From the NCBI GenBank assembly GCA_905178155.1, contig CAJINV010000015.1, positions 333,309 to 397,308 of the forward strand: a DNA stretch of 64,000 nucleotides. The letters run 5' to 3'. The notes beneath the pieces were generated by a model. The model did no database searches. It saw nothing but the letters and a program-made list of their open reading frames with translations, and was not told the origin of the DNA. The stretch is from Amoebophrya sp. A120 (taxonomy: Eukaryota; Protista; Dinoflagellata). The position numbers and the translations under genes are program-made. This document shows positions 24,206 through 49,900 of this stretch, in pieces. Numbering within the stretch: position 1 is the stretch's first letter; every line of letters begins with the position of its first letter.

Positions 24206-26023
24206 CTTCCAGGAAATGAAAGTCAATAACTGTTGTCGGGGTGGAAGGCGAAGGTTCGATTTCCGAAAACAATGGACAAAACAAAAATCAATCGTAATAT
24301 CAAAACAAGCGGAAATGGAAATCAGACAAAGATCGAAATTAGAAAATGAAACTGTTTCTTGTCATAGGTGGGCTTGCCTCACGTGTAATTCATTGTGGGC
24401 AGCAACTATAATCGACATCGGGTTCAAAAAAGTTCTCTTCTTTGGCTCTTCAAGATGCGCAAAAATACAGGGGTAGACATTTCTTTTTCAGACAGAGAAA
24501 ATTGTAATCACACGACACCAATAAATCCAAAAACAAGGACACCCTATTACGGCGCTCAGAAATGAAACTAGACTAATCGACTTGACTCAAACAAAAGGGG
24601 AAAACTGCCTTCCCGCTTTTCATCTTCTTTCTGCAGTTTTCTGGTACTTCTTCATGTGATTTGTTTCATAAACAACCTTTTGCACTACACACGAATGTTC
24701 CCCTGAAACCCCGCGAATATCTTTGACCTCCCTCCCTCTTGAAGATGCGATACAACGTACTAGATCTTCTATTGCGTACCCTAAACATCTCAAAGTTTTG
24801 ATTTTGAACCTTCCAAGTCTGGGGCCACCGTGCGAATGCGCTTCAACATAAGGTACACGTATATGAGATCAAAATTATGTTGATCATTCTCTGCAACCCT
24901 TCCTATTCCTTCCACTTCAAGAATACTTGGTCAACAAAGGATCGCTCTGCTGTAGACAACAAGTTGACAGCCTGTTCAAGTTCATTCGTTCTTGCAGGGG
25001 GGCCATGCTGCTGACAATAAGTAGAGATCCCTCAGATCCCTCAGAGATATATCTATATGAAAAGCAGGATCTTTGCCCTGGTGGCAGCGACAGCAAAGGC
25101 ACACAAAAGACACCGACACTGTTCCTAATCTTGGACTTAATATTTTTGCGAAGATCTTCCTGCAATGTTCCCGAACTGATTGTGCTTTTTTTACACCAAG
25201 AAATACTACTAGACTTTGACTTAATACTATTGAGCGTTTGATCCTCACACCGTCGTGGCCGCCCCTCGGGGCGATCGGTACGTATCCTAGTATACTGTAA
25301 ATCATGAGAAGATCCTTTTATTAGTTTTACTTCCCGTTTCCACCAGAGAGACCAGGATTTTTGTAGCAGCTATAATTATATGCGCCCACTCGTCGGTGGG
25401 GTGCATTTTTTTCCCCTGAGTAAACTCACTTCTTTCCGTAGATGGAAATAGAAAATGCCCTCGAAGTTGTAGACAAAACGAAATCTCTCCGAGCTGCAAA
25501 ATGTTGTCACAACAACTCATCACGGGCAGAAGTCAGCTCGAGAAGTAGAGGGACATCTTCATGCTTTTGCTCTTATTCATTTGTAACAATCTTCTTTTTT
25601 TTCTCAGAAAACGAATTACTCTGGCCAAATATAACGAAATCTGTATTCTCTGCACAGAACGAAAATGAAATACATGAGCTTTTTGCTTCACACACAGCAA
25701 AAGGCTAGCCCTAGCGCTAGTACAGTAGTAAAAATCCGCATCAACTTAGCAGGAGCGACCTGCATAATTTCATTCTTACACTCACGACGCAATGTTGCCT
25801 GTTCTGCAACCACACAGATTTTTCATGTTGCCCGTCTGTAAGTACTTCACCTACTATACGTCGCCATGGTCGTCCAACATGCAAGCCGGGTTTTTCATCA
25901 AAAAACAAAAAACGGCTGTACAAGCAGACTATAATGCCACATTCAAACGTGTACCGGACCACCACATCCAAACTGGCAATTTCGACTCGTTCCTGCTGTT
26001 CCGTTATCCACCCGTGCAAGCCC

Positions 26024-27096
26024 ATTGGATAAGGGGCGGGGGAGAAGGAGAGCGGCCTTCACCGTTCCTAGGCCTCCAACTCTGCCTTCCCCCGTATTGA
26101 ACTCTCTGTCACCATGGGAAGCATGGGCACGAGAGAACTGGCAAACAACGGGTGGGTGGGTGGGATTTCTGAAAAATTCAACTCCCCGGCCCCTCTTCCC
26201 CAAGGAAAAGGTCCAGCCGGTGGACCGTGCAGTAGCTTACCAGGGATTTGCTAGCCCTTGAACCAAAACCGTCGCGTATCGTCTCTTAGTCGAAAACGAT
26301 GCACCGGGGTGCATCCATATTTCGACTCGTTCCTGCTGTTCCGTTATCCACCCGTGCAAGCCCATTGGATAAGGGGCGGGGGAGAAGGAGAGCGGCCTTC
26401 ACCGTTCCTAGGCCTCCAACTCTGCCTTCCCCCAAACGACGCATCGCCGACGGCCCGGAGAACCCATGCTCAGCTGCTGAATCCGGGCAACAGGAGGAGG
26501 TGGAGGCCCCACTAGGTGGCCATCACCTTCGCCACCGCCAAACGTGCTTTCTCGTTGTCCTTGCGCATTGCCGTTCGTTTGGCGGTGGCGAAGGTGATGG
26601 CCACCTAGTGGGGCCTCCACCTCCTCCTGTTGCCCGGATTCAGCAGCTGAGCATGGGTTCTCCGGGCCGTCGGCGATGCGTCGTTTGGGGGAAGGCAGAG
26701 TTGGAGGCCTAGGAACGGTGAAGGCCGCTCTCCTTCTCCCCCGCCCCTTATCCAATGGGCTTGCACGGGTGGATAACGGAACAGCAGGAACGAGTCGAAA
26801 TATGGATGCACCCCGGTGCATCGTTTTCGACTAAGAGACGATACGCGACGGTTTTGGTTCAAGGGCTAGCAAATCCCTGGTAAGCTACTGCACGGTCCAC
26901 CGGCTGGACCTTTTCCTTGGGGAAGAGGGGCCGGGGAGTTGAATTTTTCAGAAATCCCACCCACCCACCCGTTGTTTGCCAGTTCTCTCGTGCCCATGCT
27001 TCCCATGGTGACAGAGAGTTCAATACGGGGGAAGGCAGAGTTGGAGGCCTAGGAACGGTGAAGGCCGCTCTCCTTCTCCCCCGCCCCTTATCCAAT
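26024..27096. repeat. 1073-bp palindrome (521-bp arms, 31-nt loop 26545-26575)
   Basis: 26024-26544 is the reverse complement of 26576-27096; ORF track shows identical mirror ORFs on both strands. Confidence 0.95.
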
Positions 27097-27306
27097 AGCG
27101 CTGCCCAGTCCTAAAGTCGCCTCCTGCGAAGCTTCATCATCATCATCATCGTCCGCCCCTTCCAGTAGGGCCAGCTCTTTCGCGCAAATAGTTTGCGCCT
27201 TCTTCTTCTTGATCGCCGCGGGGGCGGCAGCCTTCGCGTGCACCTTCCCCACCTTCCCTTTCGGCTTCGCAGCCGCTTTCTTCATAGCCTTAGCCTTGGG
27301 TGCCAT
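27088..27306 (-). CDS. small Lys/Ala-rich basic protein with acidic patch (H1/HLP/DVNP-like composition), possibly truncated by the palindrome
   Basis: MAPKAKAMKKAAAKPKGKVGKVHAKAAAPAAIKKKK...DDDDDDE; stop lies inside the palindrome arm. Confidence 0.55.
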   Translation of the reverse strand: MAPKAKAMKKAAAKPKGKVGKVHAKAAAPAAIKKKKAQTICAKELALLEGADDDDDDEASQEATLGLGSAIG

Positions 27307-27831
27307 AGTGGTCCTAGTTATGTTCGAAAAGAGTAAGAGCCGTAAGTGCCTCAAGCTGTAAGATGATGTGCCGGACTATGCCTAAAACTAGAGCACAGCC
27401 AAATCCCCTGTAGAAATGAAAACCCAAATTGCGGCGGAAATGAAGCTAGGCATAAGCATCCTGGAGCTCGAGCGACGCTCTATCACACCGGATCTAATGA
27501 ACAGAAGCATTTCGTCAGAGCATGGATCCCGAAGACCAGCAATTTAGTGCGATTTATAGACACTCACACCGGGATACCGAAAAATGAACCCAATGAAATT
27601 TCTGAACCCGATTTGCGCACAGCAGAAGCTTCCGCTGTGAAATGCAAGGAAATAAGGAAAGTAACCACATGCCAGCTCCCTACGTCGAAAGACCTAAGTA
27701 CCTCATGGCGCTCCTCTTCACAGAGCGCATTTCTATTTCAAGAGACCGCGCCACATCCTACTGCCCATCGGCATTGATTTCAATAATTTAGGACCTTGCA
27801 CTGTTTGGCATGAAGATGTGACTTTGACACA

Positions 27832-28770
27832 CTACGAGAGGTTCCGGAGAGGGAGCCAGGAGCACACCAAGTCCCCATCTTTGTGTCTTTCAAAATCCTC
27901 AGAGTAGTCGAAAAATGTCCCCGAAGCGTCCGACCAACCTTGTCGGAAATTGCACTCCTTGCGCGCTTTCTCCTGTTTCTTCGTTGACATTTTCGCCATT
28001 GCAGTACGGGCTGCCAGGGCGCAAGTTCTGCGAAGCCCATGCGGGGTAGAATCAAGCGCCTTCGTCGCGGTCACTATTTCCGCTCGGGAAATCGGAAAAA
28101 GCGTAGCCCAGTCTGCCACCTCACAAATCGGGCAGCAATTGATGCCCGGATAACCACAGCTGCGCTTGAGCTCTACCCGGCGGAACTGCGTTGTCTTGTC
28201 TTTCCTAACTTGTAGCTGTACCCCCTGCACGACAAAACGCTTGGCCTTCTTAATGCCCGTGAGAAAAACCTGCCGGCGGGAAATGTGGCACAGAGTATCT
28301 GCCCGGAGCCCCAAAGCGCACCCAACTACTACTATTTCGCGCTCCCTGCTTGACAAGTGCCCAAGCCCCGCCGTATGAAGTGGGCATGCTTTCTTCGGAA
28401 GCATCTGGCGGCTTTTGAGGTACCGCGTAACTGCTCTCTTTAGGCCTCGCAGCTGTCTCTCGAAGAGAACATTACGGATGCTCCCCCTCTCCGACTCCAC
28501 TGCTACCACGGAATCGAGGTAGGCGTTAGTGCTAGAATATCCACCGCCCGGCTGCGTCAGCAAATATGACGCGAAAACTCTCAGATGGGAAATCTTGACT
28601 ACTGAACCCGGAGCCGGACCTTGCTCAGCTCTAAACTTCTCCCAAGTACGGACATGTGAGGCCTGCGGACCAGCCCCCCCCGAGCCTGGGGCTCGTAACG
28701 CGTCGGGCTGACCCTCCCGAAAGGAAACGGGCATACTTTTACCAAACCTTCCACAGAAACTGGAGAGCAA
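27832..28770 (-). CDS. tyrosine recombinase / phage-integrase family protein
   Basis: Catalytic set in order: LGLRADTL (R), KDKT (K), HGLRR (HxxR), QGW (W), FFDY (Y). N-terminal core-binding-like segment LRVFASYL...YSSTNAYLDSV. No introns. First ATG at 28734. Confidence 0.9.
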   Translation of the reverse strand: MLSSFCGRFGKSMPVSFREGQPDALRAPGSGGAGPQASHVRTWEKFRAEQGPAPGSVVKISHLRVFASYLLTQPGGGYSSTNAYLDSVVAVESERGSIRNVLFERQLRGLKRAVTRYLKSRQMLPKKACPLHTAGLGHLSSREREIVVVGCALGLRADTLCHISRRQVFLTGIKKAKRFVVQGVQLQVRKDKTTQFRRVELKRSCGYPGINCCPICEVADWATLFPISRAEIVTATKALDSTPHGLRRTCALAARTAMAKMSTKKQEKARKECNFRQGWSDASGTFFDYSEDFERHKDGDLVCSWLPLRNLS

Positions 28771-29864
28771 ATTGAATACACCTATGCACTGGGTGTGCAG
28801 AAAAGAGAGGAGTCACCAGAAATCGAAGGGTGGACTTCAATCAAGCCTCAAGACAGAGCAATGAAAACTACCGGAAAGCAAACAACCTCGAGTCATAGTC
28901 AAGAGTAGCCTGTTGGAGAATTTCATGGACTTCGACCTAGTAAGAGAGGTAGACCAGCCGCGCAGTGAGGCAGTGTGCTAAACAGCGAGAACAATAGAGA
29001 CCCCATTTATTTTTCCAGAACAAGTTGGAGCCATCCCTAGATCGCCACAAAGCCCAAAAAGGGGATACATGGGGAACATTTCCGATCCTGAGCAGGAGGA
29101 GCTCGCAAATAGTATGTGTAAATCTTGATGGACCTTACGCCCAAAAACGGTTGATCGCTCGGCCCTAGAGCATAACAATACTACCATTTCTCTGACCAAC
29201 TCCGTCCCTGCGGTCGTAGGATAACGGGTTCTAACCGCCATTGCCTAGAGCCGAGCGACAAGCGTAAGGTCACTTTTCATCGGTGAGCCAATCTGCCTGC
29301 CACATCCCAAAGAAACCACTCCAACCGGAGGCAGCCGAGCCCAAGGGAAAAACCCCGCGTTTCCTATGCCTTGCCGGAAAACCCGACCCCGTCGTGTATT
29401 AACCACACGACCTCCTGATGCCTTACGTGGAGCCACGTATTCTTCCTGTTAGAGCCAAAAATCTCATCTGAGACCCATATCCGGAGGTATCCCAAGCCTC
29501 AAGCCCCCACTCTGCTAGCTGCAGAGACCGCTGCCATTTTCCCTCCTAGTTCTTCAAGATACCTCTACAAGAAAAACCCCAGCTATCTGCTGATCCGTGC
29601 CAAAGCTCCATCCCCTCTGAACAAAGGGGGGGTAACAACTAGGTGCCACCTACCCGCGCATCAGCGCCTTTCCTAATCTTCCGGAATTTCTGAAAAATTC
29701 AACTCCCCGGCCCCTCTTCCCCAAGGAAAAGGTCCAGCCGGTGGACCGTGCAGTAGCTTACCAGGGATTTGCTAGCCCTTGAACCAAATCCGTCGCGTAT
29801 CGTCTCTTAGTCGAAAACGATGCACCGGGGTGCATCCATAAATAAAAGCGACCCGATCATTGAC

Positions 29865-32261
29865 TCAACTCATCTGCTCCAGGCACCGCAAGGAAGACGC
29901 AGACGGGGTAAAAAGAAGGGGCGGGTCTTGTGTCACCGCTCTATCTGGCGGGCAGTTGTGGTGATCGTGGTGCTGTAGTGCATTACTTCTAAGAGCTTCA
30001 GCTGCACGTAGTTCTTCTTGGAGATCTATCCAGGAAAAAACAACCATCCCCATCCATTTTATGCATGACAAACAAAGGAGTTTATACATGTTTTGCATGA
30101 CAAATTGGATGGGGATGGGTGTTTTTTCCTGGATAAGATCTCGTTGCATACCGTCCGGCTGGTCGTGCTCTTCTTCCAGCACTCCCCGTGAAGGCGGGTC
30201 AGCACTTATCGTAAGGAAAAATCCCGCCTCCCCATATTGAAAAGGTATGCTTCCGAAAATTAGTGTTGCTGATTTGAGGTCACAAATCACGTTTGTCTTG
30301 CAAGAAGACAAGGGCAGAAGCTTCCGCCCCAATATGGAAGACATTTGTCATGCTGTTGGGCCTAAAGGGGAGCCGTTTGCCATCCTGAACAACTAGACCC
30401 GTGCGCCCCTACCTAGCCCGGGGATCTGGCCGCAATGCCTCTTTGCAATACAGCGCTGATTTGTGTAGTACACAAATACAGCATCAGAAGCTCCGTTTTG
30501 ATATGGGGAGGGGGGATTTTTCCTCTCAATAGCACTGGAACGAAAGTTCCCTCGATCACTCAAATTTTCCGCGTCAGAAGTCCTCGACACCATTTGCCCG
30601 TCTGTGTCTGTGAACACCACCGTCGGCCGGTGGACGGGCGGTGCTGCTGCTGCTCCTGCTGCGGCCTCCTGCAAACAGCCGCGTGCGAGTTCAAACATCG
30701 CCTCGCAGTCCGGGGAGAAAGAGTTGTACTCGAAAAGGCAATATCCTGCGCAAAAGTATCGTACTCAAACTGCAGTCATGCATTACAAATGCTTTTCTTA
30801 CGGTAAATCTTCACTACAAATTTCATTTCTCATACTGAGGAAATTTGTTATACATTTAGACGAGTACGATGCTTTTGCATTTCATAGGCAAACGTCCATC
30901 AATCGGGCGCGGCTTGTCCGCAAGCTGCCATGTTGAATCGGCAGGAGGGGAAGCTCCGATGACGATGAGGTGTAAGTGGTAGTGGTCCTGTTTTTTGTGC
31001 CCGTTCCGTGCTGGAAGAGACAGTCCGGGAATCCTAGATGACTCCTTCCGGATCCAGGTCGTAACGCTGAGGGGGAAGATGACGGAGTCGCAGGGACGAG
31101 TGGTGGAGACACTGCTCTTCTTGCTGAAGAAGTTCTTGTAGATCCAGGTGTAGTTGTACTAGCCATGGCCGCTGCTGCTCCACCGCTGCTGCAATAGTTT
31201 GACGGCCGCTCTTCGTCATCGTCTGTTCGGTAAAAATTCTGTACAGCGCCGTCGTTTTCTTCTCCCCGTCCTTTCGTCGGAAGTAGTGGGTTCAAGTGCG
31301 ACGGCTCCGACCTGCATGCCTGAACCGTCGTTGTTTCTGCTCCAGCGACCCTGTGTGGAGCAGCGTGCACGCGGCAGGATGGTTCAGGTATACTAGTACA
31401 ACACGGGGACTTTTCATGACTCGTGCTGTCTAAAAAAGTGTGTGGTTTCAATTTGCTTGCAGTTGGACTTGGGTCATCTGCTGCAACGGTATCCGAAGTT
31501 TCACTTTTACTCGACGGGCCGCCACTTCCCGAAGATATCGTGCTCTGCGGATCTGCTTTTTGGGCGAAAAAAAGCAGAGACGAAGATGTTGAGCAGCTTT
31601 TGGTGGAACAAATAAACCTCGACCCCGTTGCTTGGGCAGCGTTGGTTCCTGGGAAATGATCGTGTTCCTCCGTTTCTTCTTCATCTTCTGAAAACCGCAC
31701 TTTTTTGTTCATTTTCCGTGAACAAGAACTACCAAAGCTAATGCTTGTTCCTGGGCTCCCTGTAAATATTCCCTGCTCGTCACGACTGAAGATTTTTCTC
31801 GATGATGTGCTTCCCGATAGTACATCCTTAAGTTCCTTCGTTCCACTCGGAGACAAAATCGAAGCAGGTTGTTCTGGTCGGAGTTGTGTAGCACCGCCAT
31901 TCTTATCGTACTGCTCGTGGTGCACTTCTTCTAGGTGAGCCTTGTCAACATCACGACTACTGACGACCTCTCGTCCAGAAAGTTGCAGAAACACATTTGT
32001 GCTCGAAGAGGAGGAGGAGGAGGCAGCAGCGAGGACGCCGGTTGATTTATTTGATGCAGCATTCGCACAGCTCATCTCGTCGTCGTCGGAACGCATGCAC
32101 GGTCGTACTTGCTTTGGGTGATGCACGGTTGTTCTCTTCGGGAAAATACGCAAGTCCGGGTCATCGTGTAGAAGTAGAGCCTGGGGTGACGCCGAGCTGG
32201 TCGGTTGTTCTACACGAAAATCTCGTGCAGAAAGTATGGAAAAAAAAAAACAAACACGCAA
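29865..32261 (-). CDS. Gene 3: Ser/Thr-rich low-complexity hypothetical protein, 3 introners; 5' end uncertain
   Basis: 459-aa exon ORF; in-frame joins RSSA|DPPSRG and QRDL|QEELRA...LEQMS*. Confidence 0.65.
30027..30135. mobile_element. introner family I (109 bp, almost all hairpin)
   Basis: TIR tatccaggaaaaaac; DR agatc; in-frame junction. Confidence 0.9.
30207..30531. mobile_element. introner family C
   Basis: TIR; DR gcact; in-frame junction. Confidence 0.9.
30742..30886. mobile_element. introner family D
   Basis: TIR; DR ggcaa. Confidence 0.9.
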
Positions 32262-32427
32262 CAGGTTTAGTGGTAAAAGGATTTTCGAATAAAAATATCA
32301 TTTTGTAAATGACAAAGCGATTCTGCAGTTCCAAACGCGACGGTACACTGGTGATTTACAGGTAATAAAAGAAAGCAAAAAATACCACTTTGCGTGCTCT
32401 TGTATCAGCCGCAAATTTTGCGACCAA

Positions 32428-33900
32428 TATAGTTGGGGCTGAGTCCGTTACGGTTCGTTCCGGTTCGTTTCACCGTAACGAACGAATTTTCGTTCGTTCG
32501 TTACGGTTCGTTATGGTTAACGAACGAACGAACGAGTCCGTTTGTGGCATCAGAACGAACGAACGAACACACTGGCTTTGCCATCCAAGCGAACGAACGA
32601 ACGAACGAACGAACGAACGAATGCGTGTTCGTTCGTTCGTTCGTTCGTCATGGTTCGTTTCACCGTAACGAACGAACGAAGTGGCTTCGCGGGTCCGCTA
32701 ACGACCAAACGAACGAACGAATGGACTTTCGTTAGCTCGTTACGGTTCGTTTCACCGTAACGAACGAACGAACGAGCCCGATTCTATCTTCCTAACGAAC
32801 GAACGAACGAACGAATGGCTTTTCGTTCGTTCGTTCGTTATGGTTCGTTTCACCGTAACGAACGAACGAACGAAGTGGCTTTGCGCGGATCCGGGGCCCC
32901 GGAGATCGGAGACTTCGGGAAGCCGGAGTGCGCCTGCGGGGGGCGGCTCATCACAAAATTAGCCCTGCCATCCTTCGGAAGATTCCGCGCGGCGGTGCTA
33001 TGTGTTTTCGAAAGTAATGTTTATAAATGCAGGATGCCGTCGCGGGGAATATTCCGCAGGACGGTATTCTCGATTTATATGCGGAAGGGGGCCCTTCGAC
33101 CGGATGCTACACGGACGACCACGGAGAGGAGTCGCCCGCCGCCCCTTCCTGAGTGCCAGCCTCGACTGCCAGCCGGCAGATCGTTTATCGGAAAGGGGGG
33201 CAAGCCCCGCGATGGACTCGCCACGAAATCTGCCATGCCATCCTTCGGAATATTCCGCGCGGCGGCGCTATGTATTTTCGAATGCAGAAAGTCGCACGGA
33301 ATATTCCGAAGGATGGCGCAGCGGCTCGACATCAACCAGCCATGTCCGCCAGCTGCGCGACGTGCGCCAGGAAAGGGCGCCGGCCGTGACGCACCAAGGG
33401 GCTGCCCGCGCGGGGGACACACATGCAGGAACTTTTGGCCCCCACACTACTGATTCAGGCCGGCACACTCGGATGCCTAGAGCTCCACCCGGAACACGAG
33501 CACGGGTATGAAGTCGCATTTTTCTTCAACAAACCGCCGCCCCTCCGAAGTACTCACTGACCTTGTTCGCTAAAGAAAAACGAACAAAGCCGGCACCGGA
33601 GAAGGCGGCAATGCTGCCGAGCCGCCGACCTTCTTCGCCGTCTCGCGGAAGTTTTGGCCTTTTGCAGCTTTCACGCACAGACACCTTTTTCACACAATCA
33701 GATTCGTTCGTTACGGCGTGCCGGCTCCTGACGAGCTCGTTCGTTACGGTGAAACGAACCGTAACGAACCATAACGAACGAACGGAAGTTCGTTCGTTAC
33801 GGTGAAACGAACCATAACGAACCGTAACGAACGAACGAAAATTCGTTCGTTACGGTGAAACGAACCGGAACGAACCGTAACGGACTCAGCCCCAACTATA
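32428..33900. mobile_element. non-autonomous TIR element (1.47 kb), ~90-bp TIRs TATAGTTGGGGCTGAGTCCG, subterminal (AACG)n/(CGTT)n arrays
   Basis: 32428-~32518 is the reverse complement of ~33810-33900; no credible ORF. Confidence 0.9.
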
Positions 33901-34154
33901 CTCTTTGCGACACAATATACTTAGCTGTGGGGGGGTCCCTTGTCCCTTGTCCCTTTTTTTGGTCCGGAAGAGGGACAAGGGACAAAGGTCGGCTTTGAAG
34001 CGACGAAAGCGGCGAAAAGGTCCCTTGTCCCTTCTCTTGGTAGTGATTTGGACCAACTTTTTATCGGCCAAGAAAATCGAAAAAAAATCCGGTGGCGCGG
34101 CGAAACTGTAGAGGCCAGAGCCAACCAACGTAAGGGGGGCGATTCCCGATTCCC

Positions 34155-34930
34155 GAATTTTGCATTGCTCAAAATCGATTTTGCATTCCCGCAGACGCGG
34201 ATTTCACAAAATCGATTTTGCATTGCACGAAACCGAATCCCGCAAAATCGATTTTGCATTGCACAAAATCGATTTTGTATTGCACAGCATCGATTTTGCG
34301 TTGCACAAAACCGAATCCCGATTTTGCAGTGCACAAAATCGATTTTGCATTGCACAAAACCGAAAGCAGCAAAATCGATCTTGCATTGCACAGAAACGAT
34401 TTTGCATTGCACAAAATCGATTTTGCATTGCACAAAACCGAATCCCGATTTTGCATTGCACAAAATGGATTCTGCATTCCCGCAGACGCGGATTGCACAA
34501 AATCGATTTTGCATTGCACAAAACCGAATCCCGCAAAATCGATTTTGCATTGCACAAAATCGATCTTGCATTGCACAAAATCGATTTTGCACTGCACAAA
34601 ATCGATTTTGCTCTGCACAAAACCGAATCCCGATTCTGCATTGCACAAAACCGAATCCCGCAAAATCGATTTTGCATTGCACAAAATCGATTTTGCATGG
34701 CACACAACGCAGATTGCACAAAATCGAAGCCGCAGACGCGGATTGCACAAAACCCCTCCTCCAGACGCGCAATCCCGCAGATTGCACAAAATCGATTTTC
34801 CATTCCCCCAGAACGCAGCGCCGACCACAAGGCCGGTTTTGAGCTGACCACAGGTGGTTCGATGTTGTGGGTCGCGCAAGGGCTGTTGAAGGCCACACAA
34901 TCGCCCGACCACACAAAATCGATTTCGCAG
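34155..34930. repeat. minisatellite of ~21-bp units GCACAAAATCGATTTTGCATT with palindromic core AAAATCGATTTT; dispersed copies continue to ~37015
   Basis: direct reading. Confidence 0.9.
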
Positions 34931-35349
34931 CTTCCCAGGTCCGACAGAATCGAGCGGCCGCGTGGCTCAATATCGAGGCGGTGCGCCACGCAATCCGCCG
35001 GGCCGACGGACTAGGGGGGAGAGCTTCCAGCTATGCGCTTTAGCGGATCTCCCACAAAATCGATTTTGTGCGTCCGCCCTTTCTTCGCGGATGCAGTCTC
35101 CCACGCCAATGCCTTACCAACCCCCGTCCCAGCCCGCGCCCTCAGAGGTACGGGCAACGGGCCCTACCGGCCACAAAGTCGATTCTGCAACCCCTCAACC
35201 CTATGGACAACGTCGGCACCTTGCCGGACATTAGATTTTCCGGAGAGATCTGGACTTCCGGAAAGATCTCGGGAGATCGCTGCGGTCCGGATTTTCCGAC
35301 TTCCGGAAAATAGAGCTTCCGAGAAAATAGCAGAAAATCGATTTTGTGC

Positions 35350-35800
35350 CTCCATTACTATTCAATAGTAGCGAGATCGGACTAAACCTGGTCCATACCA
35401 TCGGCGGAGGCAGTTGCTTACTATCCAGTTGGTAAGCTGCTGCCAAAAATCCAAAAAAAATCCGAAGGCAGTCGCGCTCGAGGTGTCGCGCGCAAAAATC
35501 CGCGCTGTTTTGTGTTGCGTCCCGAGCAAAATAATAATTACTATTGAATAGTAACCAACTGCCTCCGCCGATGGTATGGACCAGGTTTGGTCCGTCTCCG
35601 TTACTATTGAATAGTAACTCGCGCGCACTTTTGGCGCATTTTTGGCGCACACTCGGGCGCACTTTTGGCACACAGAAAATCGACTTTGAAGCGCCTCCGA
35701 ATCTCTTGAAAGTGCAAGCGTTCGGATTTTTGGCAGCAGATTACCAACTGGATAGTAAGCAACTGCCTCCGCCGATGGTATGGACCAGGTTTGGTCCGTT
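35350..35800. repeat. internal inverted/direct repeat module (…CTGGTCCATACCATCGGCGGAGGCAGTTG…)
   Basis: copy at ~35385-35435, reverse-complement copies at ~35553-35590 and ~35742-35795. Confidence 0.8.
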
Positions 35801-37095
35801 CTCCTTAGCAATGAAGCAGAAAATCGATTTTCCGAGTCGATTTTCGATTTCGAGGACTTGCTGATGTCCCGATCTCGATTTTCGATTTCGGAAAATTCCG
35901 GATTTTTCGCAAACTCCGGACTTTTCGAAATTTCCGGAATTTCCGGAACCCGGAAAATCGATTTTTCGGCAGTCCCGGAAAGTCCAAGCAACGCGCGGAC
36001 TTCCGGAAAACTTGCTCCTCTGGATTTTCAGGAAGTTGGAAAATCGATTTTGGCAAACAGCCGGACAGCCACCTGCCTTACCCACATAGCAGGCCCGCGC
36101 CACCTCTTTTGCCCGCACCACCACTGACGCGGACATCGCACAAGGAGCGGTCCAACAAAATCGATTTTGCACGCCTCGGGTGATTGAACCCGCAGACGAT
36201 TCTGCGAGCCTGAAATAACTAAAATCCCCGACTCTGCGCCCCATCAAGCGCCCAGCGGCTGTCGAGGACTGAGCCGCGGCACCCACCGAGGGCTGTCTGT
36301 TTACAAAATCGATTTTGCGACCCCCGCGCCAGCCGAGAGCCTGTTCCTGGCGCCTCTACGGAGCTCAGAACACGCAGACGGGGCCCATGCCGCTCCCGCG
36401 GCTTTTCAGAACTTGGGCCCGGATGTAAGTCACAAGCTCGGGCGTTTTTCATTGCTTTCTACGCTGGGCCAACGCGATGAATGTGCGGAACTTCATCGGG
36501 GCGCAAGTTCTGGAATTCGCGATCATCCCTAAGCCTGTAGCGTGCGAGCGAAACATCGATCCAAGGCGGGCAGAGGCCCGTCCTCTGCGACTTCGCCCCA
36601 CGCAATCAATTTTGCAGCTTTTGCCGGATTTTCCGGCTTTTGTGTTGGTAAAATCGATTTTGCGACCACGCGCGGATTGTGTGGCCCCGCCCGAGGATAG
36701 GGCATCTTCGAAAAGCGTGCCCGAAGGGTGCGCACAAAATCGAATCTGTCCGCGGGTACTCACAAAATCGATTTTGTGAGCACCGCCCGCCGGGCGGAAC
36801 ATGACAACCCGGCGCCCCCAACCCGGCTGCGGGAATCTTTCTGGCAGCCCGGACGCTCCAGGGTGGGGCCTAACGCCTCAGGACACCGGCAAAAACTGCC
36901 GCGAGACCGAGTTGGCGCATTCTCGAGCTTCGAGAACGCGGGCAACCGACTTCGTTTCGCGCTACTTTGCTTCGCTTGTGGACGTTAGCAGCCGCGGCAC
37001 AAAGTCGATTTTTTGCGGCGTGCCTGGATTTTTTGCGGATTTTTTTCCGATTTTCTTAACATTTTTGAAGTCGGTCCAAATCAGTACTAACTTCT

Positions 37096-38860
37096 CGCGA
37101 AGGGACGAAGGGACAAGCAAAAGGGACACGTGCTCTCATGCATTTCCTGAAAAGGGACAAGGGACAAGGGACAATGACCACGTGGATATCATCCATTTCC
37201 TGAAAAGGGACAAGGGACAAGGGACAATGACCGCTTGTGTATCATCCATTTCCTGGAAAGGGACAAGGGACAATGACCGCCTGTGTATCCTCCATTTCCT
37301 GAAAAGGGACAAGGGACAAGGGACAATGACCGCTTGTGTGTCCTCCATTTCCTGAAAAGGGACAAGGGACAATGACCGCTTGCGTATCCTCCATTTCCTG
37401 AAAAGGGACAAGGGACAAGGGACGATGCCCGCTTGTGAATCCTGCATTTTCCGAAAAGGGACAAGGGACAAGGGCCGCTTGTATATCCTCCATGTTCCGA
37501 AAAGGGACAAGGGACAAGGGACAAGGGCCGCTGGTATCTCCTCCATTTTCCGGAAAGGGACAAGGGACAAGGGACAATGGCCGCACGTATATCCTTGAAG
37601 TTCCCAAAAGGGACAAGGGACAAGGGACACATGTATGCCATCCGATACCCGAAAAGGGACAAGGGACAAGGGAAAGCGTTTATATTCTCCAAGATCCGAA
37701 AAGGGACAAGGGACAAGGGACGCCGTTACACTCTCCGATACCCGAAAAGGGACAAGGGACACGGGGCGCATGCATTTCCCCCATTTCCCGAAAAGCGACA
37801 AGGGGCAAGGGGCACCTGCCGCCCTTCATTTGCCCAAAAGGGGCAAGGGACGTGGGACCCCAGGCAGCCTCCATTTACCTTAAAGGGACAAAGGACAAGG
37901 GACGTGCGACCCGAAGGAGCCGAAGCCGCTAAATTGGAAGAGATCCCGGCGACATGCCCTGCACCGCCACCTCCCCAGGTAGACCCGCGCCATTCCCGCC
38001 GTCTCTGTCTCCTCTCGTTCTCTTTCTCCCGTCGCCTGGTCCCTTCGCTTTTCCCCTCGCACCCGTCCCCCCCCTCATTTGTCTCTCCCTCCCTTTGTCC
38101 CTCTCTCCCTTTCGGCTGGTCCCCTGGTCCCCTCCTGGTCCCCTGCGCCCCCGGTCCCTTCTCGCCTGTCCCTTGTCCCCTGTCCCTGTGTCCCTTCTCG
38201 CCTGTCGCTTGTCCCTGTGTCCCTTCTCCCCTGTCCCTTGTCCCTGTGTCCCTTCTCGCCCGTCCCTTGTCCCTGTGTCCCTTCTCGCCTGTCCCTTCTC
38301 CCCTGTCCCTGTGTCCCTGTGTCCCTGTGTCCCTGTGTCCCTGTGTCCCTGTGTCCCTGTGTCCCTGTGTCCCTGTGTCCCTGTGTCCCTGTGTCCCTTC
38401 TCCCCTGTCCCTGCGTCCCTTCTCCCCTGTCCCTTGTCCCTGTGTCCCTTCTCGCCCGTCCCTTGTCCCTGTGTCCCTTCTCGCCTGTCCCTTGTCCCTG
38501 TGTCCCTTCTCGCCTGTCCCTTCTCCCCTGTCCCTTGTCCCTGTGTCCCTTCTCGCCCGTCCCTTGTCCCTGTGTCCCTTCTCGCCTGTCCCTTCTCCCC
38601 TGTCCCTTGTCCCTTCTCGCCTGTCCCTTCTCCCATGTCCCCGTGTCCCTTCTCGCCTGTCCCTTGTCCCTTCTCGCCTGTCCCTTGTCCCTTGTCCCTT
38701 GTCCCTTTCGCCTGTCCCTTGTCCCTTTCGCCTGTCCCTTGTCCCTTTCGCCTGTCCCTTTCTCCCTTCCCGGTCAGAACCTGGGTCGCCTCCCGGCCCC
38801 TCGGGGACCTACAGCGTGTCCCTTTTGCTTGTCCCTTCGTCCCTTCGTCCCTTCGCGAGA
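37096..38860. repeat. AGGGACA heptamer arrays (37150-37900) facing TGTCCCT arrays (38090-38760), bounded by an inner inverted repeat (37096-37130 / 38815-38857)
   Basis: direct reading. Confidence 0.9.
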
Positions 38861-41800
38861 AGGGACAAGGGACCTTTTCGCCGCTTTCGTCGCTTCAAAG
38901 CCGACCTTTGTCCCTTGTCCCTCTTCCGGACCAAAAAAAGGGACAAGGGACAAGGGACCCCCCCACAGCTAAGTATACCCTTGCGACAAAAAAATCGAGC
39001 ATAGGCTCGTGATTCAGGCAAAGAAAATGCGAAAATTGCAATAGAGAGCCAAAAGTCAAACAAAAAGTTGCTTATTAAAACACTGTTGTGTGACACTTGT
39101 TGATTCTTTTTCACAAACAAAATCGGACTTGAGCCCGGTGCCGGACTGGAGCACGGAGCTGGCGGAAGAATTAGTTCTGGAAAATGTTGTACTGCGCCGC
39201 GGGAATCATGATTCGTAGATGAATCGGGTTCAAGACGAGAAGGATTACCTATGTTCAGTCCTGCACCGCAATAGTTGACCACAACGCGGTCGTCGGAACA
39301 AGGGGGATCGCTATGTACTTGTTCGTCGAAGCAGCGCGATAGACCCTCAGAGTGCTCGACAGGGTGGGATACACGTCGTTGCAAGCGCTGCCCTCGTCTA
39401 ACAGGATCACCAGCGACGTTCATGTGGTCCTCCTCCCGCAGGTCAGTGATATCAACATGTTGACCATTGTCACCTACACGACAAAACAAATCCTCTGCAG
39501 CGTCGATCATTCCTCCCACACGCGGAACAACCCTCCTTTGCTCCATCCGCGCTGCAGTGGGGTCCTGGAAGGCGTGCATGAAAAAGCGAGCACAATGCTC
39601 AAGTTTTTTGCAAAAGTTCTTCGCATTTCTGCAGGGGTTTGTTGTACAACTTCTGCCGGAGATTGTTCTGTGTCGGCCGGAAGAATCATCTTCATCTTCA
39701 GTAAGAACAAACCGTGTTGTTGTATCATGATCCTCTAAATCCCTTCTAGCCGAAGACGGGCTGCGGGACGACACGCCAGATGAACTTCGTCGCCGATACG
39801 CAGAAGTAGCCCCAAGAACTGCACCTCCCGCATGCGAAGTTTGGTGTTCTCGTCGCTGCCGACCGGCTCTTGCGTGCAGATTTTGTTGCACGGAAGATGA
39901 ACCACGTCGATACTGACTGCATCTCCCCGACGGTAACGTGGAAAACACCGGCACAATGTGCTGCAAATTTTCCTCGTTAGAATTTTGGCCTGCTCCAGCA
40001 GCAGCAGTTCTTCTTTGTGCTTCCACCTGGTCGCCGTCCTTTCGTTCTTGCTGCACGGTGGTCCTCGGCTGACCATGTTGCTGCTCAACACCACGGGTGG
40101 TCTTCAGAGGACCATTTTTACGACCCGCAGAAGTAGTAGAACAACTACCACTCACACAACAACTCTGGCCACGATCATTCTCCTGCTGCTCCCTTGTGGT
40201 CACCAGCCGCTCCTGGTACTGCTGAAGATGCGTCATGTATCGCACGAAAAAACTGTTTCACTGTGGTGATTTAGCAAAATCTGCATCACAAGTTTGTGAC
40301 GCGTGACACTGAAAGTCTGTCATGCGAGGTTCCTAAGGGAAAACACAGCTACAAATCCACTGTCTTGCACGTGTGGCATGACACACACTTCTGCGTTCCA
40401 TTTTCTGCATCACAAGTTCACAGTGAAACAGTTTTTTCTTGCGATATCATGGCATGCCCGATCACGGCGCGCCGGATTGTCGCCGTGCTCGGAAGTAGTG
40501 GCGAAAATGAGGATATGGAATTTGTTGAACGGCCGCTGCGAGACACCACCGGCGGACGAGACGAAGAAGCAGGTGCGGTCCTTGTAGATGTTTCCATAGA
40601 TGATTTTGCACCACGTAGCTTCGTCCCGCTACTACTACAACCACCTGCCTTCGACGACGCTGCTACCGCCCCGCCCCACCGATCCGGGGGCGGGGAGCTG
40701 CTTGTTGTCTTCATCCCTTCTTTCGAGGTTTTTCTGTTCCTTGGGGTTTTGCTTGAAGATAATATTGTTCCCTGCCCCGAACTACAACTAGAGCTTCGGT
40801 GAACGACGACCGCAAGTGCGCTCGACGAACTCGTTGCAGCTGTATTTCCAGCTGGGGGCGATTTCGCCCGGGCGCTGAGATAGCCTTCCACAATATTCGC
40901 GCGAAACATCTCGCGGAGTTTTTGGGTCCCAGGAGATACCTGGCGGGAGAAGGTGGAGAGGGCTTGCTGGGCCTCGGAGGAACCGCTACATGGGAGAGGA
41001 CCGCGGGCTTCGGCTTCGCCTAGGTGATCTGGTAGTAGATTACCATCCTCTACCTCGGAAAGGGTTAATGTTGACGATGATTCATCACGTTCGGCGCCCT
41101 CCAGGCTTCCTGCTCGAACTTCCGGTGTCGAAGTTTGTTCGGCAACGGGGGTACAGCACGTGCTACTAATGCTCTTATCAACACGTTTCATCGCGTTCGC
41201 CTTCTCTGTGGTCTTACCTCGTTGCACCAACAAGGATTGCGAATTCCTGCTCTTGATGCTTTTTCGCTCGCGCAAGCCCTCGTCTGTTCTTGATGGTATA
41301 ATTGAGACGGCCCGTTCCACCTGCGCTTGGCTTTCCTTGCTTGCGGAAGAAGCTTTTTGATGTACACCTTCTACTACCGATGGATCATGCGAAGTAGATC
41401 TACTTCCATCTTGACCCGGTGATGACGGTATCATGTGACCCACCTTATGAGGATCAGGATGAGCAGTAGTAGCTTGTTCCCGCTCATGTTGCAAGCGGAG
41501 CTGCTGCTGTTGCGCACCTCCTCGTCCTGCTGGAGCGGCTGTCTCTGCCGCGGCCCGTTCAGAGGAAGATGAAACCGACGCCGGCGATGCAGATGATGTT
41601 GGCGATAACGGTAGTACTAGAGAGCCCACCCCAGACGTCGCATTTTTGCTGTTCGATAAAATCCGCTGCACGCTGGGTTGCTCCAACAAATCCTCCAGAA
41701 AATCAACCGACGAGCGATCATCGTCTTCAGTATCTGTGGGATCATCATTCCGGCTCGTATCTTCAGAAGGCTCGTCATCATCATTCTCTTGATGTTGTAT

Positions 41801-43951: not shown

Positions 43952-46900
43952 TTATCGCATCTGCTTTTCCAATTCCGTGACGCACCGGTGAATCCCGACG
44001 AGCCAATACTGGTCTATGGCGTTCTCAACTGTTACATCTTCAGCTGTTACATGGATTTGTGATGCAAGAATGGCAAAAATGAAAGGGGCGCCCTTGCGCG
44101 TCTTGCATGACAGATTTGGCACAGATTCTCAGCCTCTTTGGCTCTTCGAGAATCTGTCATGCGAAGCAGCTTGATCGTGTCGATTCTGATAATGTGATCT
44201 TGCATGACAAATCGTCTAACAGTTGAGAATGTAACATTTGAGAACGCCATATGGTCCTTCTGTGTCATGCCAGTACTGGACGACAGCTGTTGCTTGATCG
44301 ACTTCACGGTATTCACATCGCTTACCGATTGCGCGAGTTCGATCAGTTTTAAACCGACCTGTTCGTTCAGCTGGCCCGATTCTAACGCGTCGTAGATCGC
44401 CTGGAACCGTTTCCTCGTGTCGTCCACTACCCGCTTGGCCTATCAAATGCAAAAATGTCTGGGTCTGGATCATGCACATTTTGCATGACTCCTGATGTCT
44501 GTGATGCATGCCCTAGCATCACAGATTTTATGAGGGCTTCCTGATGCCTATAACGCATCAGAAATGCGCTCTCGCCATGACAAAAACTGGACCTCTGTTG
44601 CCGTTCATGCAATACAGATTTATTGTAGAATCCAAATCCAGCATTACAAGTTGCTATCTTCCAGACCTAGACATTTTTGCAATCCATATAGCCGGCTGGA
44701 CCTGTGCGTACTGCGAGAAAAGCTGCTCGAGGCCTTGCTTGACCGTGGAAATGTCCGCCGGAGAGGCGATCCACACGGGCTGGCCACCTGAGGTTTATAC
44801 ATAGGTGATTCTCATACTCACATCAACATTGATCACTTGTACAGAATCATCTCAAAGATCTTCAGACACAAGGATCGAAGGTGGCTTACTCCGAGTCCGA
44901 GTCGCGGCTTACTTAGGTGACGACCACCTGACATGATTCTCACACTCCGCTTTGTAGTGAGACAGGTCGTGAGGGTGAGTGGGAGCAACTCTCTGTGTGC
45001 ATCAATCTCTCTCATCTAACTAAAAGTACTCACTCTCTACTTTTCAACATCCAAATGACACATATTAACTCCAGAGTAAAGACCGACCATCCACCATCTT
45101 TTATCGCGTCAAGATAAAAAAATCTCAACTTCTCGATTCGCTCAACAAAAAATCAAACTGCAGTACCTGCCGCCGGACTCTGATCTGCCTGCGTGGCGTT
45201 CACCTGGGCGTTCAATCCGGCTGTGGCTTCGTTCGTGTGCAGAGTCGATTGCGTTGGGTTCGGGATCGGCCAAGGGGTAGGTAATCCTTCGATGACAGGC
45301 TATCCTACGCAAAAGCATCGCACTCGTAGTATTAATTGCAGTCCTGCATTACAAGTTTTTTTCTCAAGGCAAATCTGCATGACACATTCTATTTCTCATG
45401 CTGAGGAAATCTGTATTGCATTTATACGAGTACGATACTTTTGCAATGCATACAGGCTCTGCGGCGGCCATGGGAGCGGTCGACCGACCGCCTGCCACGG
45501 CCGAGCCCATGACTTGTTCTGTATGGAGTTTGTATGTTGAAAAGTGGATCTGGAAGTTTATATGTGAACTATATCAAGTGCTACTGCAGCTAGTAGTAAC
45601 CTGCATCAGCATGAGATGGGAATTATGTCTTTGACAAAACACAACATCAAAATCAATTATCACTACGTTGCTGCGGCGGTGGCCCGCCTCCTCCCATGCT
45701 CATCTGCTGTGGCTGCATCTGCGGCTGCATGTGGCCACCACCTTTCATTCCGCCCACCTGCGGACTTGCGCCGTACATGCCCCCGCCGCCCGGGGGGCCG
45801 CTCATCATGGACGTGTTGGCCGTACTGCCTCCCATCGGGCCTCCCGGAGCCGACATGGGTGTGGTATTAGTGGTCGGCGTTGCAGGTGGGGGCATTGCCA
45901 TGGGGTTGCTGATGTTCTGCATGGGCGGTTGCATCATGCTGTTTGGATTCCCCATCCTTCCCGCTTCCCCACTGTTCATCGACGGTGTCATGGTCATCGG
46001 GTTACTCGACATACCGCCCTTCATGTGACTCCCGACCGGGGGCATCTGATTGGCTTTCTGGTGCGACATGGGCTGCTGCGAAGTTGTCGGCATGGACGGA
46101 TTTCTGGCCGGGGTTTGCGGGGCTATGCCTCGGTTGGGTGGTGCAGCCGAGCCAGGTCCGCCCATCGGAGGTTGCTGCATCCCCTTTTGTATCAAATGTA
46201 AAAATGTCTGGGACTGGAAACTTGTAATGCTAAAAATGAATGATAGACGCACTGCAATACGCAGCTATGCATGACAAATTTTTTGGCTGCCATGTGTTAC
46301 GTATTCCGTGTGGCAAACTGCGTTTTTGCATGACATCAGGTAAGAAGGCTTTTTCGTGCCTATGCAACACAGATTCCCGAGTCATGCCAGACAAGCATGA
46401 CAAACTTGCATTCTTCCAGACCCAGACATTTTTACATTTCATATTTTGCGATGCCGCCATCCCGCGTTGCCCCTGTGGCCCGGTGGGGGGTAAACCGGAT
46501 TTGCCACCTGAAAAGTTTATTTGATGATGCGAAAAATTTTTGTACGAAAACTAGTTTGTAGTTCGTATAGTTCTTAGGGACCACATCAACGTTCATCTGT
46601 GCGGTATGAATGTGTGTATCTACCAGCACAACATCTTTCTTGATCAAAAGGCCAAATGCGAGCAGCACGACAGCGTGGTTAGTTTCTTTCATCTTCTTTA
46701 CGGGCGACGAGGGTCGTTGTAGAAGATTCTTGTAGATGGATCTTCTTCTTCAGCAGGTTGTGAACCGCGCATCATCTACTCTATAGCTGTTTTTACTACA
46801 CTTTCCGTCGCTGCATGTTACTTATTTTGCAGGACTAGTACAAGATCACACCCACACGTCATCAACTCGCAAGAATAGGTAAAAGCGTATTATACCAGTT

Positions 46901-49900
46901 TGCTTCCCCGCCCCTGGTCCGTACATGCCCCCTCCCATTCCCGGCGACACCTTGATCGACACCTGCTGAAACGGCATTTCCCCGGGGTGCTGGAACCCGC
47001 CCTTGTGGATTTCTTCCTGAGGTAACGCGTGAAAAATCCTGTGTCTCAGCAATGCCGAGCTCGGGTCGTTCTTCAGCCGCTGGAGCTGTCGCATGGCGCT
47101 TGTCATTCTCCCGGAATTCGCCAATAGTTCCGCGTACTGAGTGAGCTTCAAAGTGAAAAGCCCCAACTCCGTGCTGTTCGGTTGATTCTGAGCGGTATTG
47201 TTCACCACCGTATGCACTGCAAATATGTTTGGGTCTGGATAAAGAATGATGCACACATCTGTGGTCAACATGCAGTTTTTGCATCTGCAAAAAGGTCATC
47301 GATCTGAAATGCACTGTCAGAGCATGGCAAATTCTGCGAAGGTTTTGAAGCCACGACGCCGAGTCTCCTGCAGTAGTTAAAATTATGCCCTCTCGTCCAC
47401 GTCCTAGACGAGACGAAAAACGAACGGTTTTTGCTGAGGACGCAAATACATGAGATTTTTGTCTACAACAACTCCAGACTTCGGATCACAAGTTATTGGA
47501 ATCTACTAGACACTTCCAGACATCTTTCTGGACATGTTTGCAATGCGTATGCCGTTTGCGTGATGTCCTGCCACACCGTCATGCGCTCGACCAAAGCTTG
47601 GAGCGCCAAGTGCTGGCTGTTCACGGGCGAACTCGCTCCCGGGTTGCTGCTCGTCATCCCGACGCCCATACTGGACCAGTACTGGATCGTCTTCCCGAAA
47701 TTCTTCGAGCAGACGCAACACAAATATCCAGTGAGAATTTTTTTCAGTACACGACGTACAAATTCCTGCACTCGTCGGGCATGACAGAGTTGTTCTTTTG
47801 CCACGAACCTACTTCGCGATACAAGTCGAGGGTGTAATTAAAAGTTGCCGGAATTTATTGTCATGCATCTTGTAGCTGTGTACGGAAAATTTTTGTCTAG
47901 CATAATAGCACCGCGGAGCGCACGTCAAACTTTTCGTGCTCCAACCTGTCGGCGAGTTTTTCGGTTAAATACCGCCAAGCCTGTATGGAACTGCCAGGAT
48001 CGAAATTGACAAAGTCGAAAAATTTGTGATGCATAAAATGCATGACGCGGAATACGTGTGTTGCAGAGCAGGCAAGTGAGGCCGATTATAAGCCTGTTTG
48101 GGGTTATAGATCGAGCTGCTAAAGCAGCATGAGAGAATCAGCCTTCTTTGCCTAAACAGCATTACAAACTGGATTTAGGCGCCCCCAGAATTTGTCATGC
48201 GCCACTTAGAAACTGGGTTCGAACTGGAATCCATTTTATGCATGGCAAATCATTTCGATTTTGTCAACTTCGATTCTGACACTTCCATAGCCTGGTCGTG
48301 CTCCGCGTAGGTGGCAAGCAAGGCGAGCGTCTCTTTCCAGTTGTTCAGGTTGCTGTCATATGCATTGCAAATACGTCTGGGTCTGGAAGAGTACGCGACT
48401 TGTGACGCAGGACCTAGCATGACAGATTCTGTGAGATCTCTATCATGCCTATTCTGCATGAGAAACTCCCCCTCACGACCCTGGTCGAAAATGGACGGCT
48501 TTTGGTACTCATGCAAGACAGATTCTTGTATGATTCAGATGTAGCATGACAAGTTGCTATGTTCCAGACCCAGACATATTTGCAATCCATATGTCACAGA
48601 CCAGTGCTTCGAGTTGGTTCTGCACCACATTCCCAATCGTGGACAAAAACGGATCCTGCTGGCTCTGGATGTATTCGTCACGGACCTTGGCGAACAGCTC
48701 CGGCTCGGGGTACGCGATGAGGAGCGCGTCAGCAACGCGACCACACCTGGTCAATGACAATGAGGGTTGTTCTTTCGCATAAACATGATGCATAGCCGCA
48801 TCTCAAATCTCCTGAGCCGCGAGGAAAATCAACATGACAAATTGCGCTTTTGTGTTATGAAAAAATCAGACACGACCAGAATAGTTGAACGTTTTTCTTT
48901 TGTCTAGAGCACTAATAAAATACTTCAAACAAATTTCCACGGCTGCTTCCCTGCTTCCGACCAAGAAATTTTGTCGGATGAGGAGCTCCGGTCCCTGGTT
49001 CCAATGTATAAAAGTGCACTCAACTTACTACTCCCCCTGCCTCCCCTGCACATTTGTAATGCAAAAATACCAAATCCACATGTTGTCTTCAAATACTGTG
49101 CGCATGACAAATCTTCAGAAGATGTGTCATGCGAAGGCTCCACTTCATCTGCCATTGCTTGTGTTGCTGCTGAGGCATTTCAACAAATGAGGGCCGCGGG
49201 GAAGCAGCCTGGGGAGTAGTTGTGCACTGCAAGGATACAGTCCGAAGCGGAGTCGACCTTCTTTTGCTGTAGTTGGAGTTCTCTGCATTGCAAAAGTATC
49301 GTACTCGTAGTAATTGCAGGCATGCATTACAAATCTCCATCCCAAGGTAAAACAGCATGACAAATTCGATTTGTGGTCATGCTGAGCTACTTTGTAATGC
49401 AATTACTACTATATACGATGCTTTTGCACAGGATAAGTTCCTCCTCCTCCTTTTTCCTCGCCAACTGCAGATCCTCCTGTTTCTTTATCACAAGGAAAAA
49501 TGCCCCCTCCCCATATCGAAAACGAAATTTGTGATGCTGTATTTGAGTACACAAATCGACTTGTAATGCTAGAAGGCCAAGAGACGCAGCTGTGGCTTCG
49601 TTTGCAGGCAATCTGTGATGCTGTTTCCCACTTCCAGCTGCCCCCTGTCATGCTAAGATGCAAGGCTTTCCCACGCCAACCAGCACTACAGTCCGCATCT
49701 TTTCTCTTCTAGCATGACAAAGCTGATTTGTGACCACAAATCTGCATCACAAATTTCTAGTTTGAGTATGGGGTGGGGGGATTTTTCATTTGATATTCTT
49801 CTGCGCCTCCTTCTGGGCCATGGTGCTGAAAAAGTCTTTATGAAATGTAAAAATATCTGGGTCTGGAAGAATGCAAGATTTGTCATGCATATTTCTCACG

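Follow-up and report, generated by a model that had tools for sequence, protein, structure and literature searches.

How two unrelated inverted-repeat elements came to stand one directly behind the other, with the same seven letters at each of their three boundaries, is the question raised by a stretch of 64,000 nucleotides from Amoebophrya sp. A120 (contig CAJINV010000015.1, positions 333,309 to 397,308; this whole stretch is the window, and positions are counted from its first letter). The core TTGCGAC occurs three times, within TTTGCGAC at 32417-32424 and 33904-33911 and by itself at 38981-38987, and between these sites lie perfect inverted repeats of 91 nt (32428-32518 and 33810-33900) and 121 nt (33916-34036 and 38857-38977) whose outer edges read TATA. 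An initial annotation had placed the triplet, the TATA edges and the repeats correctly, and had proposed that the two elements, here E1 and E2, integrated through a constant 7-bp core with the help of a tyrosine recombinase (YR). The repeated letters are instead 8-bp target-site duplications (TSDs), and E1 and E2 are probably a variant of known cut-and-paste elements with long TSDs, with an added site preference. We consider it likely that both are DDE transposons, probably Mutator/Foldback-like, and that their transposases place each insertion at a set distance from a conserved motif that exists in multiple copies.

The ends of the elements were scanned over offsets of 0-7 nt, and the longest direct repeat, of 8 bp, appeared at 3 nt per side in E1 and E2 alike. 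With these boundaries E1 spans 32425-33903 between abutting copies of TTTGCGAC and E2 spans 33913-38980 between abutting copies of TTGCGACA; since 8-mers drawn at random from the window agree in pairs with p 4e-5, both direct repeats are beyond chance. The elements share the layout CAATATA at the start and TATAC(T/C)C at the end, and the 7-mer common to all three sites is the overlap of two 8-bp duplications set 1 nt apart. The 3-4 unpaired nucleotides reported earlier between repeat and terminal inverted repeat (TIR) arose from ends placed 3 nt too far inwards, and these spacers belong to the elements, not to the target. This is a parsing trap, in which unequal tips disguise a normal target duplication as a recombinase core. 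When both elements were inserted in silico into a single site, CAAATTTTGCGACAAAAAAAT, either order gave exactly the observed junctions, and their removal left one clean copy of the site. Other copies were sought in contigs of public sequencing runs (X1, X3, X4 and X7, of which X4 is RNA by guess) and in metagenome contigs, one of which, L003, carries a second E2. The stack is composed of the following features.

32232 to 39117, reverse strand: host intron containing E1, E2 and E3, an X4 contig joining 32231 to 39118
32376 to 32424, forward strand: upstream half of the target motif, with 39/50 ungapped matches to the flank of E2 in L003 and weaker likeness back to about 32335
32417 to 32424, forward strand: left TSD of E1 (TTTGCGAC), the junction being matched without difference by an X1 contig over 31900-32452
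32425 to 33903, no strand assigned: E1, non-coding, 1,479 bp, recognised by its tips, inverted repeats and other copies
33904 to 33912, forward strand: overlapping TSDs from the offset scan, the right one of E1 (33904-33911) and the left one of E2 (33905-33912, TTGCGACA)
33913 to 38980, no strand assigned: E2, non-coding, 2,008 bp (5,068 bp with E3), recognised by its tips, repeats and the L003 copy
34037 to 37090, no strand assigned: E3, non-coding, 3,054 bp, nested in the left inverted repeat of E2 and recognised by imperfect TIRs of 55 nt (TTRGTASTGATTTGGACC)
38981 to 38988, forward strand: right TSD of E2 (TTGCGACA), the letters of the right junction also occurring as a loose end in X3
38996 to 39015, forward strand: downstream half of the target motif (CGAGCATAGG...TCGTGATTC), with 16/20 matches by eye to an X1 right flank that begins TTTTCGTT

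E1 and E2 are built alike, and the earlier statement that they are unrelated holds, as their internal similarity is without significance (best blastn E 0.022). The tips of E1 are not inverted (CAA at 32425-32427 and CTC at 33901-33903), its 91-nt inverted repeats are sub-terminal and lie inside the tips, and the sub-terminal motif CACCGTAACGAAC occurs four times forward at the left and three times reversed at the right, pointing inwards. Similarly, E2 has the tips CAA (33913-33915) and CCC (38978-38980) and contains AAGGGAC 95 times, counted over both orientations, with every copy lying outside E3. The initial annotation described a second element of 5 kb; it is indeed bounded by inverted repeats, but its real length is 2,008 bp, the remainder being the nested E3, without which the inverted repeat is about 160 nt long, 33916-34036 and 37097-37130 together pairing with 38815-38977. 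The copy in L003 lacks E3 and is identical at 175/188 nt. E3 itself is flanked by a 6-bp duplication, CTTCTC (34031-34036 and 37091-37096), and its ends read TTRGTA; contigs start exactly at 34037 in X1, X3 and X7, and the flank in X7 differs. E2 was probably inserted before E1, because E3 later entered E2; the junctions fit either order and, as both orders rebuild them, the sequence leaves the order unfixed. As an observation in its own right, E3 represents a high-depth repeat family in X1, with a summed contig depth of 377-1154 against about 44 in the single-copy flank.

The nature of the 8-bp repeats is decided by the other copies. Four other contigs match the right end of E1 through CTATACTC and then depart from the window, two from X1 at 33903, one from X3 at 33904 (flank TACGATAC) and one from X1 at 33906 (flank TTTTCGTT), and none of the four contains TTTGCGAC. 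The left ends of E1 in X1, at least six among the matches displayed, are the window's own, two contigs referred to as records 3 and 4, and another three whose first position is exactly 32425, as it is in two further contigs in X3; TTTGCGAC is present in 0/5 of the left-end contigs other than the window's own. In L003, the duplication slot of E2 is filled by TTTCGATT, followed by CAATATAC. Constant TTGCGAC flanks, which the recombinase model predicts, were thus looked for in these contigs and other letters were found. Record 4 has three differences from the window, one shown as G>T at 32420, and TTTTCGTT differs from TTTGCGAC at exactly three positions including this one, which suggests that the left end in record 4 pairs with the right end that continues into TTTTCGTT; with this inferred pairing of contigs, the two likely represent a second complete duplication of E1. 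Some consensus lines are mixtures of two or three contigs, in which single flanks are not separable. Because the CAA and CTC tips travel with E1 while the repeated letters change from locus to locus, the 8-bp repeats are TSDs, and neither a recombinase core nor a TA duplication. The end pattern of E1 had 0 matches in metagenome contigs and viral contigs, and that of E2 had three in metagenome contigs (L001, L002 and L003) and 0 in viral contigs and in prokaryote genomes. L001 and L002 were dropped as E2 copies, since each is a chance match of a 20-23-mer in which the remainder of the repeat is missing; their flanks score 7-19 of 50.

Why both families struck the same place is probably explained, at least in part, by the flanks. 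These belong to a multi-copy motif that covers about 50 nt before and about 25 nt after the insertion site. The 50-nt flank of E2 in L003 matches the pre-insertion site of the window at 39/50 positions in register +1, as compared to 8-18 in nine other registers and to 28 at the next best among 127,902 window positions. L003 is a different host locus, which matches the window only in introners, E2 and the flank, with no match to the window's gene. Furthermore, the alignments of X1 records 3 and 4 continue ungapped into the flank, over 35 and 13 nt respectively, in the register of E1, and paralogous copies of the upstream half are present in X1 and X4. In an empty copy of the motif (record 2, a contig in both X1 and X4), the upstream half (40/44) is followed by a stretch like the downstream half, and no element separates the two. 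Altogether, at least three of six E1 left ends lie in the motif in register 0, and both E2 left ends seen (2/2) lie in it in register +1. The similarity between loci is confined to about 50-90 nt, and the flank is more diverged (11/50) than E2 itself (13/188; p 0.006), which, together with the perfect duplications in the window, favours independent insertions over co-duplication. Sequence comparison supports a site preference, for which the evidence comes from four loci with five insertions in all, two being visible from one side only. The earlier suggestion that stacking reflects a site preference therefore survives in that both families recur at one position of the motif, while the recombinase core by which it was thought to operate does not.

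The downstream half of the motif also holds GAG(C/T)ATA(G/C), which resembles the right tip of the elements, much as the sub-terminal repeat of Dada transposons occurs in their targets (PMC3706591). No transfer RNA (tRNA) was found in the in-silico empty site, a profile search of the window gave no second copy of the motif (best E 0.56), and the motif pattern had 0 matches in viral contigs. Two candidate resemblances were set aside. A suspected likeness of the motif to segments of the U4/U6 small nuclear RNAs (snRNAs) found no support in Rfam, nor in what the Farhat supplement gives as text, its alignments being pictures, and a likeness of TGCGAC to the GCGAA targets of Dada transposons was dropped because other loci differ.

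The assignment of E1 and E2 to the Mutator superfamily relies on their architecture; here and below, published systems are described from the passages of the cited papers that were compared. Mutator and Mutator-like elements (MULEs) have TSDs of 8-11 bp (PMC6446971), a range that includes the 8 bp of both E1 and E2, and a Mutator family with an 8-9-bp TSD is entered for Amoebophrya A120 in a dataset row of PMC12130899. The long terminal or sub-terminal inverted repeats (91 and about 160 nt) with arrays of tandem sub-terminal motifs are those of the Foldback type, sub-terminal inverted repeats having a precedent in PMC3169594. A similar architecture is that of Tm1, a Foldback-like Mutator/Phantom element of root-knot nematodes, in which the TIRs are composite and asymmetric tips are enclosed by TSDs of 8-10 bp (PMC3169594). 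Like E1 and E2, it has unequal, non-inverted motifs between inverted repeat and TSD, one starting with C and one ending with TACCC, and its composite TIRs with tandem repeats, its mostly non-autonomous copies and its nested elements recall the stack as a whole. In contrast, its tips are 7 nt long and its TSD is mostly 9 bp, whereas E1 and E2 have 3-nt tips outside TATA and an 8-bp TSD. Muta1, a MULE of Aedes aegypti, has an 8-9-bp TSD, a TIR of about 145 bp, sub-terminal repeats that bind the transposase, and the terminal motif GGGTCTACCC (PMC5499845, PMC5225508). In a check for G-rich terminal motifs, the right ends GGGTATAC and GAGTATAG proved close to the Muta1 motif, the terminal GGGTCTAC of Muta1 and the E2 right end GGGTATAC being identical at 7/8 positions, and the left ends read CAATATA; unlike E1 and E2, Muta1 has symmetric ends and a known transposase. 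Membership of E1 and E2 in Mutator is likely, although the superfamily is unproven, with no transposase found.

A transposase made elsewhere and supplied in trans would, in the proposed mechanism, bind the sub-terminal repeat arrays, cut outside the 3-nt tips and join the element to a staggered cut of 8 nt, the position of which would be set by the motif. The motif might be read directly as sequence, as in Dada, or the transposase might be tethered to a host protein bound there. As an insertion duplicates just 8 bp and leaves the motif halves intact, a second family can strike the same spot; reusing it 1 nt away would produce the tandem stack with no need for a recombinase.

Several observations weigh against this reading. 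No transposon family of Pfam was found among 38 open reading frames (ORFs) of E1, E2 and E3, three weak and unrelated Pfam matches all lying below the cut-offs, and Farhat et al. report no transposase in A120. In the passages compared, no target preference is reported for Tm1 or Muta1, and the left tip CAATATA agrees with the A1 motif of Tm1 at 2/7 places. Of the E1 left ends in X1, three of six fail to align with the motif in register, as does the right flank in X3 (TACGATAC...), which implies that targeting is partial or that these sites are reversed or diverged, and Rfam gave no match near the gathering score with each motif half scanned separately. Both duplications of one copy can be read directly in the window alone, L003 and X1 record 3 showing the left side only, and an E2 right end with 10% divergence seems to have a different tip, its mixed consensus ending in GGC. 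Finally, X1 and X3 derive from one sample, which is possibly the source of the window, although their loci are still separate insertion events. With regard to the missing enzyme, both the U1 snRNA and transposases have been reported missing in the Amoebophrya lineage; the near-perfect ends and recent copies seen here imply a transposase that escaped the published search of A120.

A bolder extension, which we put forward tentatively and regard as possible but doubtful, is that E1 and E2 represent a new lineage of DDE transposons in which target specificity is combined with long ends of the Foldback type. The termini CAATATA...TATACYC would be common to several families, and each family would seek out, in a register of its own, a conserved non-coding element of 75-90 nt. 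This element might be a hitherto undescribed functional unit of the Amoebophrya genome, such as a regulatory site bound by protein or the gene of a divergent small RNA. Few DNA transposons of eukaryotes are target-specific, the examples being Dada, Pokey and some CryptonV (Kojima 2022, PMC8869645), and no description of target-specific inverted-repeat elements in Amoebophrya was found in literature searches, which covered listings and took in neither figures nor supplement files 13-14 of PMC12130899. If true, the base-precise landing of Mutator-like elements in a long conserved motif would be a new case and a natural site-directed DDE system; it would also indicate that this genome, which is known for odd splicing, contains a conserved non-coding element that has gone unrecognised.

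The strongest rival keeps the same site-preferring cut-and-paste mechanism and ascribes it to a transposase of another long-TSD group (Dada, hAT, P, Zisupton/KDZ) or an unnamed one, which we regard as unlikely. Dada elements are specific for their targets and are present in the relative Perkinsus, and Dada resembles the stack in its DDE-type TSD, its fixed place in a multi-copy sequence and the stacking of two families at one site (PMC3706591, PMC8869645), as well as in a target with one better conserved side and end-like motifs (PMC3706591). The fixed site of E1 and E2 is, however, partial and based on small numbers. In addition, Dada has TSDs of 6-7 bp, no long TIRs but merely sub-terminal repeats of 7-9 bp, and targets in small-RNA genes (tRNA, snRNA and 5S), whereas here the TSD is 8 bp, the inverted repeats measure 91-160 nt and no known RNA matched the motif, with Rfam scanned half by half and tRNA sought in the in-silico empty site. 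TSDs of 8 bp, as in E1 and E2, are also produced by hAT, P and Zisupton/KDZ elements; compared with their termini, the left ends here start with CA and the right ends lack a terminal TG. The ends CAATATA...TATACYC match no terminus in the passages compared, which leaves room for an unnamed group, while the resemblance of the right end to the terminal motif of Muta1 argues for Mutator.

It is distinctly improbable that E1 and E2 are ordinary, unspecific transposons and that the flank they have in common is either a loose hot spot or an ancient repeat, duplicated or transported together with them. Among the E1 left ends seen, half do lie outside the motif, and the motif is a repeat of unassigned origin in an intron whose ends, once the insertions are removed, look like those of a decayed introner. 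On the other hand, two unrelated families occupy the same place in family-specific registers, the similarity between loci extends over about 50-90 nt only, and the duplicated letters are locus-specific while both pairs in the window are identical at 8/8 positions. A flank that diverges more than the element it borders, and an empty copy that has both halves, likewise speak against a repeat carried along.

Integration by a tyrosine recombinase through a constant, regenerated 7-bp core, with cassette-like stacking, can be given very little credence. It would account for the tandem stack at one site and the threefold TTGCGAC, a YR-like gene lies nearby at 27832-28812, and Cryptons, which are YR DNA transposons, do use a short core and share short direct repeats at their ends and a site preference with E1 and E2 (PMC9977147). 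Crypton cores, however, are constant and target a near-identical core, whereas the letters here vary by locus and follow the target, the core being absent from the other E1 contigs (0/4 right, 0/5 left) and from L003, and the elements have long inverted repeats. Moreover, the window holds no YR-coding copy with the ends of E1 or E2, the nearby gene residing in another element. The remaining possibility, TA-targeting elements in a pre-existing short tandem repeat, is recommended by the TATA at the inverted-repeat edges but is next to inconceivable, because the CAA and CTC tips are kept in copies with other flanks, and because the site is restored as a single clean copy once both elements are taken out.

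The neighbouring element (25979-29840, reverse strand) is separate from E1 and E2 and has other ends, which are split direct repeats in the layout A...B A B, of 158 and 115 nt. We take this layout to recall YR retroelements of the Ngaro/PAT type; no reverse transcriptase frame was seen in the element. Its YR-like ORF (27832-28812), 3.6 kb from the stack, is divergent, with an atlas score of 0.97 and template modelling (TM) values of up to 0.74 with integrases; it had no Pfam match, and a protein search returned only the ORF itself. A perfect 521-bp inverted repeat with a 31-nt spacer (26024-27096) inside the end of this element may be an artefact of the assembly or may reflect fold-back duplication.

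The TAT...ATA ends of E1 and E2 had also been taken as a link to the introners of this genome, of which only these letters proved to be common. In the window, many unrelated introner families (e.g. 712-1019, 8467-8679, 40238-40446 and 48359-48591) combine TAT...ATA with an exactly abutting 5-bp duplication, a rule simpler than the published description of 3-5 nt at a variable position. These abutting repeats without tips were found in 27/81 raw TAT...ATA pairs, many of the remaining pairs being cross-element mispairings or internal matches. The window introners begin with TAT, about seven letters and an A run, in agreement with the description for Amoebophrya A120 (PMC7789003). They resemble E1 and E2 in the TAT/ATA letters at the repeat edges, in non-autonomy and in the type of genome (PMC7789003, PMC12130899), but have 5 bp at offset 0/0, measure 100-350 nt and are themselves introns, whereas E1 and E2 have 8 bp at 3/3 and lie within a larger intron. 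E1 and E2 are therefore not A120-type introners.

That larger intron appears to take the whole stack with it, as judged from the transcript-like X4 contig, in which E1, E2 and E3 have apparently been spliced out by the host together. It measures 6,886 nt, or 323 nt without the insertions, and the join of 32231 to 39118 is in frame and gives an open frame of 829 residues. Its ends are non-canonical, and those of the 323-nt form resemble a decayed introner. For this host intron of about 6.9 kb, there is no GT and no AG at either possible cut position, the join being supported by one X4 contig. Elsewhere in the window, fragments of a WD40 protein gene (46846-55559, reverse strand), which look like Sec31, are split by many introners and match 13 beta-propeller families below the cut-offs.

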